From Minisyncoccota bacterium (GTDB taxonomy: Bacteria; Patescibacteriota; Minisyncoccia; Phycocordibacterales; GWA1-40-21): a stretch of 30,745 nt of DNA. Of this stretch, positions 24,964 to 30,310 are shown one piece after another; positions within the stretch are counted from its first letter, which is position 1, and every line of letters starts with the position of its first letter. Made by a program: the position numbers and the translations under genes. The notes below the pieces were generated by a model. It saw nothing but the letters and a program-made list of their open reading frames with translations, searched no databases and was not told where the DNA came from. Location: positions 1 to 30,745 of the forward strand of contig JBAZYH010000013.1 of the NCBI GenBank assembly GCA_041659365.1, in the 5' to 3' direction.

Positions 24964-25060
24964 CTTTAAACAAGTTCTTACTTCATTCAACATGCTGAGC
25001 TGGCGAAATAACCTTGTAAAATAAGGTGTTTTTTCTTATCTCAGACAGGACTCGAACCTA
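24964..25060. repeat. Repeat family copy A (full length): CTTTAAACAAGTTCTTACTTCATTCAACATGCTGAGCTGGCGAAA + hairpin + T-run + ...GACTCGAACCTAA
   Basis: Shares a 33-45-nt core with copies at 27237, 27997 and 30280. The minus strand contains a canonical tRNA T-arm motif GGTTCGAGTCC. Confidence 0.7.
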
Positions 25061-25062
25061 AC

Positions 25063-25090
25063 TTGACAAATATTTTATACATGTTAGGAT
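25063..25090 (+). promoter_or_regulatory. Sigma-70-type promoter (TTGACA-16-TAGGAT)
   Basis: Hexamers read directly, upstream of the 25125 gene. Confidence 0.4.
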
Positions 25091-25124
25091 TTAAATAGAA
25101 TCAAAACCAGAAAGGTAGGACCTT

Positions 25125-25340
25125 ATGCCGCGTGCACTTAAAACAGACAAGTTTTTTCTTGGTGCCATTCAAAAAAGTGGACGAATGAAAGGAAAAAGAT
25201 TGTTAAGTTTCAATTATGCTTATAGTGGGGACACTAGCAAGATTAACCTACAAGACATGATTGATTTCCTTAAAGAGAAAGGAGTTGAACCTTCCTCCGT
25301 AGAAGTTCCAAGAAATTTCATCACTTCAACGAATGGGTAA
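25125..25340 (+). CDS. Hypothetical small protein (71 aa), GC-rich cargo
   Basis: Intact ORF between a promoter-like site and a terminator (25360-25389). Confidence 0.4.
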   Translation: MPRALKTDKFFLGAIQKSGRMKGKRLLSFNYAYSGDTSKINLQDMIDFLKEKGVEPSSVEVPRNFITSTNG

Positions 25341-25359
25341 CCATCCCCGCACTAGAAAG

Positions 25360-25389
25360 CCCCGCGCTTCTATACGGGGTTTTCTTTTA
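25360..25389 (+). terminator. Rho-independent terminator
   Basis: Stem CCCCG/CGGGG with a 10-nt loop, then TTTTCTTTT. Confidence 0.55.
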
Positions 25390-25422
25390 TCTAAAAATTC
25401 CCTATCTCCTTTTTTAAATAGC

Positions 25423-25451
25423 TTGATTTATTTTATATATCATGGTTATAT
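25423..25451 (+). promoter_or_regulatory. Sigma-70-type promoter (TTGATT-17-TTATAT)
   Basis: Hexamers read directly, upstream of the 25533 gene, which has an AAGGAGA Shine-Dalgarno. Confidence 0.4.
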
Positions 25452-25532
25452 AAATAATGGAAGTCCTTTTATATAACTTAGGATAATCACTGTGATTATT
25501 CGATAAGAGGATTCAAACAAAGGAGACAGATA

Positions 25533-26144
25533 ATGAAAGCCGACACAACAAAACTGGCTAGTTCATTCAAAGCGTGGCGCCTAACTTTAGGCACAGAACC
25601 CCACAACATCAAAAAAGCAATCAAACACTGTGAACAACTTGGCTTACTACCGAAGGTTTGTGGTTACCAAGAAGATATGATTTTATTTTCAATAACCCTG
25701 CCTTATGGAAAATTTTCTCATCCTCAGGCGTTTGTGAATCATCACATGGATTATCTCCATGCAGCAATTTTCCATGGAACGACAGTAGAATTAATTTGTC
25801 CTGTGGAAAAAAGTATGTGTGTTGAGGTGGGATTCCACCAAATTGACGCAGACATCAACTTTCCCACAGACCCTCAATTACTGAGGGAAGCTCTAACGGA
25901 TGATGAGGTTCTTGCACTTTGTGGTCTCATCGGTCGAAAAGAGTTAGAACGGATTGCATCTGTCACTCACGAACATGGACCTAATCCAGACTATGATGCT
26001 CTGGCAAAACAAGAAGGCAATGACCTTATTATTATAAGACAGGCAATCATTAAAATGACAGGAAAAAGTCATCCTTGGATTATAGGATTTGCTTCTGAGT
26101 TTGCAGGGTCCCTACTGTCAATGTATCCAACTTTCAAGAGTTAA
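25533..26144 (+). CDS. Hypothetical protein (203 aa), GC-rich cargo
   Basis: Strong Shine-Dalgarno AAGGAGA 9 nt upstream; terminator starts at the stop codon. No recognised family. Confidence 0.5.
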   Translation: MKADTTKLASSFKAWRLTLGTEPHNIKKAIKHCEQLGLLPKVCGYQEDMILFSITLPYGKFSHPQAFVNHHMDYLHAAIFHGTTVELICPVEKSMCVEVGFHQIDADINFPTDPQLLREALTDDEVLALCGLIGRKELERIASVTHEHGPNPDYDALAKQEGNDLIIIRQAIIKMTGKSHPWIIGFASEFAGSLLSMYPTFKS

Positions 26145-26182
26145 TTCACACCCCACGAAGGCTTCGTCATTCGTGGGGTTCC
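26144..26182 (+). terminator. Rho-independent terminator
   Basis: Stem CCCCACGAA/TTCGTGGGG, then TTCCTTTTTTAT. Confidence 0.7.
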
Positions 26183-26260
26183 TTTTTTATATTAAAGTTA
26201 AACTTCCCCACCTCCAATTTTATAATATTCCAGTTTAGAGTTCTGAACTTGTCCACAAGA

Positions 26261-27932: not shown

Positions 27933-27996
27933 TGTAACATACTAATAATAATTTATTAAAATATTGTTCAATATATAATTAAATAAAATTTAATCA

Positions 27997-28095
27997 CTTC
28001 AAACAAGTTCTTGCTTCATTCAACATACTGAGCCAGCAAAAAGACCATATAAATTATGGTCTTTTTTGAAACCTATTGTACAAGTTCGAACCTAA
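27997..28095. repeat. Repeat family copy C (full length) including a bidirectional terminator hairpin GACCATATAAATTATGGTC and ...AGTTCGAACCTAA
   Basis: Core CTTCAAACAAGTTCTTGCTTCATTCAACATACTGAGCCAGCAAAAA aligns with copy A. The hairpin occupies the same position as in A but with a different stem sequence. Confidence 0.7.
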
Positions 28096-28097
28096 TA

Positions 28098-28580
28098 TTA
28101 TTTTCTCCACCCCATTCCAGGTTGAATATTATTATTATTAAAATAATTACTCATCATTCCTTTCATTGGTCCTCTTTTAAGTAAACTATCATTAACACCC
28201 GTAACATCAATCATCCAACCAGTTATCATTACAGCTAAAACAAAACCTACAACAATAAACCATGTTTTTATTTTATATGAAAAATCATACTGACGAATAA
28301 GCCAAACCCCTAAAATCAAACCTACGATTGCAAAAACAATAGTCAGCCAAGGGAAATTAGACATTATTTGATCTAGCTTATACTCCCCCATTGGTCCATG
28401 AGTACGTAAAGAAAATCGTATTAATCCAAAAAGAAATGTAGAAACAATTAATGCAGAAATCAAGCCAATAAACGTGATAATTGAACCAATAATAAAATAT
28501 ATCTTAGGTTTCATCTTGATTTTACCCTGTTCGATTTGATTCATTATATCTTCTGTAATGTTTTTTATATCTTTTGACAT
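28098..28580 (-). CDS. Membrane protein, putative anti-sigma factor partner of the upstream ECF sigma
   Basis: 160 aa, 3-4 TM segments; overlaps the ECF sigma gene end by 16 nt. Assignment is from position only. Confidence 0.4.
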   Translation of the reverse strand: MSKDIKNITEDIMNQIEQGKIKMKPKIYFIIGSIITFIGLISALIVSTFLFGLIRFSLRTHGPMGEYKLDQIMSNFPWLTIVFAIVGLILGVWLIRQYDFSYKIKTWFIVVGFVLAVMITGWMIDVTGVNDSLLKRGPMKGMMSNYFNNNNIQPGMGWRK

Positions 28581-29107
28581 GTTTTTTTCATTAATTTTTT
28601 AGCTCTATTAATACGCACAGCGACCGTTCCCATTGGAATCCTTAATATATCACTAATTTCTTGATAAGATTTATCGTCTATATAATATAGTGAAAGTGGT
28701 TCAGAATATAACAGAGGTATTTCTTTCAAACATTTTCCGACCTTAAGCACCACCTCCTTCTTTTCAAAATCTTCCTCAATATTTTCATCACTACCAAAAT
28801 CAAAATCATCTAATATTGAAACTTCTTTATAATATTTCTTTATTATATTGATAGATTCATTATGAACAATACGATATATCCAACTTGAAAAACTTTTATT
28901 TGTATTAAATCCTTTTAAATTAGTATATGTTTTTATAAAAGAATCTTGAACAATATGACTGGCTCTATCGTCATCATGTACTATATTTACTGCATATCGT
29001 AAAAGTTTATTTTTATATCTATCGATTATTACAGCATAAAGGTTGTAGTCATTTGAGCGAATTTTTTCTACTAATTCTTCATCAGTTAATTTTTCTATAT
29101 CAGTCAT
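28565..29107 (-). CDS. RNA polymerase sigma-70 factor, ECF subfamily
   Basis: Region 2 SFSSWIYRIVHNESIN and region 4 SYQEISDILRIPMGTVAVRINRAKKLM. Confidence 0.8.
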   Translation of the reverse strand: MTDIEKLTDEELVEKIRSNDYNLYAVIIDRYKNKLLRYAVNIVHDDDRASHIVQDSFIKTYTNLKGFNTNKSFSSWIYRIVHNESINIIKKYYKEVSILDDFDFGSDENIEEDFEKKEVVLKVGKCLKEIPLLYSEPLSLYYIDDKSYQEISDILRIPMGTVAVRINRAKKLMKKTCQKI

Positions 29108-29183
29108 TTATTTATATTTAATACCATCTTTCTATACACCAAATCCCGATTATTTTCGGGATCTGATATCTGAAATATAGTAA

Positions 29184-29564
29184 TTAACGATTTATACCCC
29201 TACATGTACCCATTCTATCATTATTTCTACCTGAACCATTTTTTAATCCTAGACCTAATTCTTCACGAATTTTCTGAGCTTCAGTGGTTTTACCTTGAAG
29301 AGATAACTTTTGTGCTTCAGCAAATTTTGCAAAATTATCTTGTGTAATAACTTCTGTTACTCTACCTTTGTTCTGCATAAGATTTTTCCAAGCTGTATAG
29401 TCTCCAGTCTCAAAAGCCTTAGTCATTGCTGTATGGCGCTCTATTGAGTAATTTGGACCCTTTACTGTTTGATCACCTTTATACGCAAGTACACTTCCAG
29501 CAGAAACAGCTACTACTCCCAATACTATCGCCAAAGATCCTAATACCAATGTTGTTTTTTTCAT
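29184..29564 (-). CDS. Secreted hypothetical protein (signal peptide)
   Basis: MKKTTLVLGSLAIVLGVVAVSAGSVLA, then a hydrophilic domain. Confidence 0.45.
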   Translation of the reverse strand: MKKTTLVLGSLAIVLGVVAVSAGSVLAYKGDQTVKGPNYSIERHTAMTKAFETGDYTAWKNLMQNKGRVTEVITQDNFAKFAEAQKLSLQGKTTEAQKIREELGLGLKNGSGRNNDRMGTCRGINR

Positions 29565-29664
29565 ATTATTTTTTATTAAAGATTATTAAAGAAAGATTGT
29601 TTTAATTTATAATTTAACCTTTCTACCTCTAATACAACACAAGTATTATTTTTCTTTCATTTGT

Positions 29665-29907
29665 TTATTTTAAAAGCTGTTCAAAGGCTTCTGGTTGAAA
29701 ACCCACTAAAATATTTCCATCAATATCTATAACAGGTACACCCATTTGACCACTTTTTGTAACCATTTCCTGAGCTTTCTCTCTGTCTCTTGAAACATCT
29801 ATATCTTCAAAAGGAACATTATTTTCTTTAAAATAATCCTTGGCATATACACAGTAAGGACAACTCGGCGTCGAATAAACAATAACTTTGTGATTTTTTG
29901 TATTCAT
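29665..29907 (-). CDS. Glutaredoxin-like protein (CPYC active site; NrdH/YruB-like)
   Basis: 80 aa; VIVYSTPSCPYCVYAK...GVPVIDIDGNILVGF thioredoxin-fold pattern. Confidence 0.75.
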   Translation of the reverse strand: MNTKNHKVIVYSTPSCPYCVYAKDYFKENNVPFEDIDVSRDREKAQEMVTKSGQMGVPVIDIDGNILVGFQPEAFEQLLK

Positions 29908-29934
29908 TTTTTTTTATTTTTAATTAACTAATAA

Positions 29935-30207
29935 TTATTTGTATTTACAAACAAACTTCTTTAAATCACTTATAAACTGATCCTTGGGAAGCTTGTAACA
30001 AACCTTTTTACCTTCACGAACTGCAATAACCAAACCTTCTTTGGACATAACCTGAAGGTGATGAGATACGATAGCTACACTCATATTCAATTCTTCGGCT
30101 ATATCAGACACACAAAAATTTTTCTTACTAAAGATAATACACAGGATTTTAAGTCTGCTTTCATCTCCAGCTGTGCGCATCATTTTTGCTAATTCATTCA
30201 AATGCAT
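29935..30207 (-). CDS. ArsR/SmtB-family transcriptional regulator
   Basis: 90 aa; RLKILCII...CVSDIAEELNMSVAIVSHHLQVMSKEGLV winged-helix pattern. Confidence 0.75.
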   Translation of the reverse strand: MHLNELAKMMRTAGDESRLKILCIIFSKKNFCVSDIAEELNMSVAIVSHHLQVMSKEGLVIAVREGKKVCYKLPKDQFISDLKKFVCKYK

Positions 30208-30279
30208 GTTTGAATGATATATGATAGTAAAAATATTGTCAAATCAAAATTAGACAAATTCATCTTTTATAGATTAAGC

Positions 30280-30310
30280 CTTCAAACAAGTTTTTACTTC
30301 GTATAATGTG
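30280..30310. repeat. Repeat family copy D (diverged core): CTTCAAACAAGTTTTTACTTCGTATAATGTG
   Basis: 22/31 identity to the copy A core; contains TATAAT. Confidence 0.55.

Follow-up and report, generated by a model that had tools for sequence, protein, structure and literature searches.

The window analysed here is the entire 30,745-nt contig JBAZYH010000013.1 of a metagenome-assembled genome (MAG) of a Candidatus Paceibacterota bacterium (proteins MFA5935043-79), and its subject is a family of short intergenic repeats between the genes of that contig. The host portion had a GC content of ~29%. From 17.9 to 27.2 kb the GC content was 37-48%, and this region encoded a SIR2-HerA defence pair, an 849-aa homologue of the major vault protein (MVP) and four orphan genes with no match in Pfam, PHROG or PADLOC. 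The SIR2-HerA, MVP and orphan genes each had their own TTGACA/TATAAT promoter, Shine-Dalgarno sequence and GC-rich terminator. Next came an NYN gene and an operon for ArsR, a glutaredoxin, an extracytoplasmic function (ECF) sigma factor and an anti-sigma factor. Homologues of the NYN protein confirmed that the contig is of Patescibacteria/CPR origin. Exact-protein look-ups yielded contigs of close relatives (L007-L013, L014/L015 and L016-L018). The operon of the window was 88-90% identical to that of L007-L013 and L014/L015, and a 182-aa orphan gene of the window was also present on L016-L018.

The repeat family is real and non-random. Its 36-nt core matched at 24965-25000 (1 mismatch), 27238-27273 (3 mismatches) and 27998-28033 (2 mismatches), all on the + strand, and none of 100 dinucleotide-preserving shuffles gave a match. 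A 17-nt degenerate sub-core gave four hits against 0.12 expected, adding copy D at 30284-30300 to copies A, B and C; all four copies were on the + strand. Copies A and B had 27 exact bases in common (24968-24994 and 27241-27267). A profile built from the copies and run with nhmmer found no additional copy in the window, and the first 21 kb contained none. In 20 kb of a related species, one clear and one diverged copy of the core were present. A preliminary sequence-only reading had described a dispersed family of four copies, to be abandoned if they proved to be random low-complexity matches. The shuffles dispose of that doubt, and the family stands, with more members than the four: E (22106-22186), F (21052-21138) and a junction at 26201-26268. 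E carried the hairpin of A in flipped orientation and a T-arm-like piece without the core, and in F and 26201-26268 diverged relatives of the core formed the left arm. Logan unitigs of run SRR18595301 matched 24200-27395 and 27395-30213 exactly; since they reproduce both stretches independently, the repeats are not an assembly artefact. The break between these unitigs at 27395 was considered as an island border and rejected, as it is explained by a 35-nt stretch in common with another NYN locus of the same sample. Scans of the viral collection for the hairpin, the tRNA-like junction and the type-2 arm (described below) gave no match, and a scan for the tRNA-Asn 3' end returned only whole tRNA genes in phage tRNA clusters.

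Sequence at the joints could be traced to one resident gene:

5032-5106, + strand: resident tRNA-Asn gene, called from sequence by ARAGORN (Rfam tRNA, 69.8 bits)

The 3' end of this gene is ...CCCTACCTCCGGAGCCA and reads ...GGTTCGATCCCTACCTCCGGAGCCA. On the + strand, core and hairpin were separated by a hexamer, GGAGC(A/C), with exactly the sequence in which the acceptor stem of tRNA-Asn ends. The match to the tRNA-Asn 3' end extended to the 15-mer CCCTACCTCCGGAGC in sister junctions (21384, 22109 and two places in L007), with zero expected by chance. The 13-mer CTACCTCCGGAGC was found at 5092 (in the tRNA gene), 21386 and 22111 in the window, where none is expected, and twice in L007; all copies were oriented as the tRNA-Asn gene. 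The junction hexamer and the 14-15-nt direct repeats described below have their source in the last bases of tRNA-Asn. Each junction can be written as a left arm, GGAGC(A/C) and a right arm. Four types of left arm occurred: the core (type 1), the F arm, a tRNA-like arm and a type-2 arm of 46 nt (26216-26261), which L014 has as well. The right arm was a TTGACA promoter, a promoter module of 55 nt with an extended -10, or an A-tract/hairpin/T-tract that in some junctions had the T-arm-like piece after it. The junctions of the window were as follows:

21052-21138, + strand: junction F, with ATACCCCTCC, a 30-nt left arm (21062-21091), GGAGCCA (21092-21098), an A-tract, the hairpin AGACCC..GGGTCT (21108-21127) and a T-tract

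21140-21400, + strand: inverted (GCTCCGGAG..GTAGGGATCGAA) and direct (GATTCCCTACCTCCGGAGCA) copies of the tRNA-Asn 3' end

22106-22186, + strand: junction E, with the tRNA-like left arm CTTCTCTACCTCC, GGAGCAG, a terminator hairpin (22127-22158) and an inverted T-arm-like piece (22159-22186)

24955-25062, + strand: copy A, with the core as left arm (24955-24995), TGAGCTG (24996-25002), a hairpin (25005-25034) and a T-arm-like piece (25035-25062)

26201-26268, + strand: type-2 junction, with AACTTCCCCACCTCC, the 46-nt arm (26216-26261) and GGAGCAA

27228-27308, + strand: copy B, with the core (27228-27268), a degenerate hexamer AAAGCAA and a weak bulged hairpin with a T-run (27278-27308)

27988-28097, + strand: copy C, with the core (27988-28028), TGAGCCA, a hairpin (28038-28067) and a T-arm-like piece (28068-28097)

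30271-30371, + strand: copy D, with a diverged core (30271-30311), GGAGTAA (30312-30318) and the extended -10 promoter module of a 69-aa gene (30319-30371)

Between core and hairpin, A and C had TGAGC, D had GGAGTA and the L007 copy had GGAGCA. The promoter of the MVP-like gene (22197-22224) followed junction E, which was orthologous to L007 17145-17066 (88% over 82 nt), and the TTGACA promoter of a 71-aa gene (25063-25090) followed copy A. The junction at 26201-26268 directly abutted the TTGACA/TATAAT promoter of a 254-aa gene; in L014 (3566-3480, 88.5%) the same left arm had a hairpin attached instead. Copy C abutted the stop codon of the convergent anti-sigma gene. Downstream of the clear core copy of L007, 25/27 identical to A, came GGAGCAAT, then an extended -10 promoter and then a 116-aa gene, as in the layout of copy D. 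With respect to the hexamer, the F arm and the type-2 arm were related in one and the same register (p<=0.0005).

The most direct evidence for recombination at the tRNA-derived sequence came from a unit with a single gene:

21386-22124, + strand: one-gene cassette with a TTGACA promoter, the 182-aa orphan gene (21485-22033), a terminator and perfect 14-nt direct repeats at both ends

The body of this cassette was 725 bp (21400-22124). Its repeats, CTACCTCCGGAGCA at 21386-21399 and 22111-22124, matched tRNA-Asn 5092-5105 at 13 of 14 positions. At 17141, L007 had a single copy of the repeat, colinear flanks and the 725 bp missing, i.e. an empty site, and excising the 725 bp including one repeat from the window recreates the L007 sequence (left 95% over 108 nt, right 88-94%). 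In L016, an equivalent cassette was 90% identical over 21401-22102, from the -35 box to the terminator, among different neighbours. Be it by insertion in the window or by precise loss in L007, the tRNA-Asn-derived repeat has been a site of recombination, and the case for the 182-aa cassette as an insertion bounded by tRNA ends is close to proof. Directly to the left, the inverted and direct tRNA-end copies at 21140-21400 were split in the window by a 105-nt insertion (21170-21308) flanked by the 17-nt direct repeat TACGTGTAGGGATCGAA and not found in L007. The two strands of the uninterrupted block in L007 gave fold z-scores of -7.8 and -9.2, as expected of an inverted repeat. This 190-nt conserved non-coding block (L007 17085-17275) was considered as a new RNA and rejected, since it folds equally on both strands; it is an inverted and a direct copy of the tRNA-Asn 3' end.

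The left and right sides of the junctions assorted separately. All pairs of junctions in the window and three related contigs were compared for identity over 20 nt on either side of the hexamer:

IG1 and L007-17133: left 20/20, right 8/20

E and L014: left 2/20, right 19/20

IG5 and L014: left 17/20, right 7/20

IG1 and IG5: left 6/20, right 16/20

L007-16409 and L007-146aa: left 5/20, right 18/20

A and L007-116aa: left 17/20, right 4/20

Many pairs were identical on one side and unrelated on the other, in both directions. Since the pairs match on one side only, the hexamer is a sharp switch point between independently assorting modules, and left and right arms have been exchanged at it independently between loci and between species. 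The borders of homology between relatives also fell in these elements. Homology to L007 and L014 stopped inside copy C, at 28062 and 28090, and around copy D homology to relatives broke at 30258/30275 and 30342/30371; the genes beyond these breakpoints differed among the three genomes. At the position of C, L014 had a type-2 junction joined to the same anti-sigma terminator, so the site is old while its left arm varies. The units between junctions were the MVP gene (E-A), three orphan genes (A-B), the NYN gene (B-C) and the sigma operon (C-D). With the SIR2-HerA pair, the MVP homologue with its relatives across many phyla, the NYN gene and the orphans, the flanked genes are typical variable cargo. 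MVP homologues with 70-75% identity had their own promoters and terminators in their contexts, with neither the core nor the tRNA-like box; therefore, the joints do not travel with the MVP gene. The contexts of close NYN homologues likewise had no core nearby.

A promoter module of ~55 nt with an extended -10 (…AAAGTATCAWTATYAAAWATATTTTGATATAAT…ATG) lay ahead of four unrelated genes in two species, at 30319-30371 in the window and at 16347-16409, 12635-12707 and 4878-4922 in L007. The orthologous 66-aa gene of L014 had a different upstream region. This pattern amounts to promoter reuse and promoter swapping.

Because MAFFT set the hairpin stems in different registers, each copy was folded separately instead of counting covariation by columns. 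The claim of the sequence-only reading that A and C carry hairpins at the same offset with unrelated stems was borne out by folding (A 25005-25034, C 28038-28067), with an A-tract before and a T-tract after each. Copies B and D, described there as core only, were not: in B the weak bulged hairpin and T-run lie at the offset seen in A and C, and in D an AT-only hairpin (30342-30362) overlaps the extended -10 of the gene that follows. Across the junctions, the hairpins lay 3-10 nt past the hexamer, each with an A-tract on one side and a T-tract on the other, had at least four unrelated stem sequences and folded at -16 to -5 kcal/mol. Terminators acting in both directions are expected to have this shape. 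The C hairpin was the terminator of the convergent anti-sigma gene, likewise in L007 and L014, and the F hairpin was the first terminator past the SIR2-HerA operon; the L007 orthologue of the latter had a paired C/G insertion that kept the stem. E and A folded as long imperfect hairpins. The A hairpin was the reverse complement of that in E (22127-22158), L007 and L014, with the same stem and a flipped loop.

A canonical tRNA T arm had also been read on the minus strand of A. The motif GGTTCGAGTCC is present there, and ARAGORN called no tRNA at this or the other T-arm-like pieces; the tRNA-Asn at 5032 was its sole call in the window. In inverted orientation, the piece and tRNA-Asn positions 50-58 had the 9-mer TAGGTTCGA in common (p 0.002-0.02). 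Beyond this 9-mer it had no similarity to tRNA-Asn, and none into the acceptor arm. The piece is possibly an inverted remnant and not a tRNA end. The broader idea of ends like those of integrative elements, with tRNA-derived sequence, survives with a different anatomy: the tRNA-derived part is the + strand GGAGC(A/C) between core and hairpin.

The NYN unit between copies B and C showed features of its own. The B-to-C spacing around the gene was 760 nt in the window. Contig L006 (817 nt, ENA ERZ19568023) carried a 91%-identical NYN gene and identical 55-nt ends, giving a 762-nt circle or tandem unit. Within 27333-27395, the NYN stop codon sat in the loop of a two-way terminator, and a conserved convergent promoter (TTGACT-16-GATACT with an upstream TG) would give an antisense RNA of ~55 nt. 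The 3' flank was kept in five NYN loci (the window, L003, L005, L006 and L007 6961-7153), of which that in L007 was the remnant of a deleted NYN gene. Its conservation suggests an arrangement like that of a toxin with an antisense RNA.

The sole recombinase gene in the window was a large serine recombinase (5092-6642, minus strand) that abutted the tRNA-Asn 3' end; no tyrosine recombinase was found in the window. After the serine recombinase, the stretch 5092-13900 held genes for an AlwI-type restriction enzyme and for two D12-class methyltransferases as well as orphan genes, and it probably represents a separate integrated element. When 21078-21098 is joined to 5100-5120, the symmetric sequence CATATC-N8-GGAGCCA-N8-GATATG results, possibly an attP.

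On balance, we lean towards reading the repeats as att-like junction sites between small gene cassettes in a hypervariable region of this Paceibacterota chromosome. So read, the family is a lineage-specific version of something known, namely joints with tRNA-derived cores at which a cassette or island array recombines, and what is unusual in the array is the very small size of the units and the terminators built into the joints. Cassettes would be gained and lost through recombination at the hexamer; this recombination is probably site-specific and probably involves circular intermediates. The units bounded by core copies would move like the 182-aa cassette. The core may be kept as the element-side arm bound by a putative recombinase or as a source of the homology needed. 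The hairpins may be kept by position and not by sequence because they insulate adjacent cassettes transcriptionally.

Several observations count against this reading. Only the 182-aa cassette had an empty site; neither such a site nor a circular form was found for A-B, B-C and C-D, the units with core copies at their borders. The hexamers of these core copies were partly degenerate (TGAGCT in A, AAAGCA in B and TGAGCC in C), and the similarity of the core to the arms of F and type 2, which share its register with respect to the hexamer, was statistically weak (p ~0.03-0.05). Beyond the core, a flank similarity of ~60-65% persisted, which could equally reflect duplication of an element of ~90 nt with selection on the core only. 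No ORF in 17.9-30.7 kb had a recombinase domain, and the housekeeping genes xseA and xseB (14059-15622) and other host-like genes separate tRNA-Asn from the array. The core was absent from viral, genome and metagenome DNA collections in pattern scans with two degenerate patterns, and the lineage sample compared was small, ~100 kb in total.

Tandem accretion of integrative elements and decayed cis-mobilizable elements (CIMEs) at tRNA gene 3' ends has been reviewed (PMC5704250). The array resembles such accretion in having an insert bounded by direct repeats of a tRNA 3' end (the 182-aa cassette; A-D at hexamer level only and partly degenerate), units without their own integrase, several of them head to tail, att-like sites between them and an empty site in a relative. 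It differs in that the units measure 0.7-3 kb, often with one gene between a promoter and a terminator of its own, the sites include terminators and have several unrelated left arms, the conserved identity is just 6-15 nt, no integrase or transfer functions are linked to the array, and the host belongs to the Candidate Phyla Radiation (CPR). The array is also not contiguous with its target tRNA gene; because xseAB lies in between, this is not simple tandem accretion at tRNA-Asn.

The promoter/stem-loop cassettes (PeSLs) of T4-type phages (PMC2839356, PMC4122927) are likewise small repeats of terminator and promoter between orphan genes in hyperplastic regions, and there, too, the motifs mark the borders of the indels and replacements by which close relatives differ. 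A terminator with a sigma-70-like promoter, the pairing that marks a PeSL, occurred in A, E, D and the junctions at 21.4 kb and 26.3 kb; C had no promoter on that strand. Circular one-gene products have been reported for PeSLs, of which the NYN contig L006 provides a hint here. Unlike the window, where the exchanges map to a 6-nt tRNA-derived motif of a bacterial chromosome, PeSLs lack a tRNA-derived core and act in phage genomes, by homologous recombination.

Integron attC arrays share with the window small cassettes, structured and imperfectly palindromic sites whose structure is more conserved than their sequence, and the exchange of arms at a fixed crossover point. Unlike in integrons, there was no IntI, attI or Pc, the boxes RYYYAAC/GTTRRRY were absent when the copies were read directly, the cassettes had their own promoters and lay in both orientations, and the crossover was in the middle of the site and not at its end. 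A more ambitious form of our reading would be a dedicated, integron-like system of cassette capture, in which a putative recombinase swaps single-gene cassettes with their own promoters at the tRNA-Asn-derived GGAGC, the structured sites double as two-way terminators, and the sites also swap the promoters of housekeeping genes; this we regard as distinctly unlikely.

Putative mobile promoters have been described (PMC3488235). As in these, modules of 50-100 nt are reused here before unrelated genes, for example the extended -10 module after D. The bacterial interspersed mosaic elements (BIMEs) of E. coli and the pneumococcal BOX elements are mosaic intergenic repeats, and the short motifs of the window are similarly mosaic. 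All of these are defined by sequence reuse alone, whereas the modules here are tied to a tRNA-derived switch point and to gene presence and absence.

The main rival, which we hold to be unlikely, is that the repeats are PeSL-like terminator/promoter cassettes, i.e. regulatory joints that shuffle genes by homologous or microhomology recombination without a dedicated recombinase, with the core as a spacer or upstream promoter element. The joint occurrence of stem-loop terminators and sigma-70-type promoters listed above speaks for it, as does the position of the copies in a variable region by orphan genes, where the breakpoints of relatives fall at copies. The 27-nt exact identity of A and B is also about the minimum length for recombination by E. 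coli RecA. What tells against it is that the switch points are confined to one 6-nt motif and do not fall anywhere in the shared modules, and that the documented insertion has just 14 nt of identity, the tRNA 3' end, a classical target of site-specific integrases. It seems quite improbable that the core is instead a cis-regulatory binding site, for example of a response-regulator-type factor, kept by regulatory selection with no role in recombination. The core does contain three TTCnnAC direct repeats at 10-11 bp spacing upstream of promoters, it is conserved at 25-27/27 against ~60-65% in the flanks, and in D and L007 it lies ~40-75 nt upstream of an extended -10 promoter and start codon, the promoter following further downstream in A and B. 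Yet in A, B and C a terminator hairpin stands between the core and the next promoter, downstream of C there is no transcription in that orientation, the downstream genes are mutually unrelated, and no candidate regulator is linked to the copies. Operator readings for an ECF sigma factor and for ArsR were dropped because of mismatched spacings and the lack of dyad symmetry in the core.

The remaining explanations include the three that the sequence-only reading had offered for the core, namely a small structured RNA, the 3' end of a gene and a miniature inverted-repeat transposable element (MITE), and none of them fared well. A family of + strand small RNA genes, with the core as seed region and the variable hairpin and U-run as intrinsic terminator, is very improbable: a conserved 5' part before a terminator conserved in structure and divergent in sequence is the usual look of paralogous small RNAs, but there was no conserved upstream promoter, two copies (D and that of L007) had no proper T-run and a hairpin overlapping the -10 of the next gene, no Rfam family reached its gathering score (at E<=10 only terminator-like chance hits appeared), and the whole-copy folding z-scores were unremarkable (A -1.5, B +0.8). 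We give little credence to a minus-strand coding remnant or micro-ORF, MLNEVRTCLK(A/S/P)*, whether the end of a gene duplicated by insertion or a peptide of 11 codons. Its ATG and stop are retained in 4/5 copies, and four of the five sites that vary among A, B, C and the L007 copy are synonymous third codon positions; these are also third positions of an open + strand frame and hence carry no strand signal, and with just five sites p is ~0.05-0.13. No copy continues into a longer ORF or lies on one of more than ~31 codons, the ORF follows a terminator, only convergent gene ends come after it in 3/5 copies, and the diverged relatives of the core in F and type 2 have no such ORF. Least credible of all is a MITE or a selfish repeat like the repetitive extragenic palindromes, spreading by transposition. 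The repeat is short, intergenic, hairpin-bearing and dispersed, and there are presumed insertion sequence (IS) transposase fragments at the contig ends, but the core copies are flanked by neither terminal inverted repeats nor target-site duplications, the parts are also found apart from one another or differently combined, and the ~5 clear copies in ~100 kb cluster at cassette borders.

Gene gain and loss in the very small genomes of CPR/Patescibacteria is little described in the literature we searched. If the reading as att-like junctions between cassettes is confirmed, defence-type and orphan genes (SIR2-HerA, the vault homologue and NYN) would be exchanged in these genomes as tiny self-contained cassettes. 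Their joints would reuse the end of a tRNA gene and contain the terminators and promoters by which transcription of each cassette stays independent of the others, and the same joints would replace the promoters of ordinary genes between close relatives. The combination of left arm, GGAGC and hairpin would then serve as a signature by which to find variable regions, and their recombinase, in these uncultured bacteria.

Strong Shine-Dalgarno sequences and -35/-10 promoters preceded the genes of the higher-GC region (17.9-27.2 kb). In the low-GC host genes, the promoters were of the extended -10 type, 7-13 nt ahead of the start codon, and Shine-Dalgarno sequences were absent. The MVP homologue (22320-24869; 849 aa) had an MVP shoulder domain and 48% GC within this CPR genome. 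Its nearest relatives were 62-75% identical (Logan contigs), with ~50% identity in Desulfobacterales, Bacteroidota, Riflebacteria and others.

Positions 1-127 and 30619-30745 formed a perfect 127-nt inverted repeat at the contig ends, each end comprising the last 38 codons (…YYNNERLHLGIDLKTPNQIINCVQGAE*) of an ORF entering from outside. By eye, we take the C-terminal motif of this ORF to resemble an rve/IS-type transposase. The inverted repeat is either two inverted IS copies that bracket the contig or an assembler artefact at k = 127. Just left of the higher-GC region, a LOOT RNA (Rfam RF03000, 82 bits, full length) was found at 17320-17444 on the minus strand. Two tandem 181-nt units (17504-17878) lay directly upstream of the SIR2-HerA pair; they were dense with the iterated 10-nt motifs AAATACTAGC, AAATGTCAGT and ATGTTAGCATTTGTTAGCATTT and resembled iterons or an operator array.

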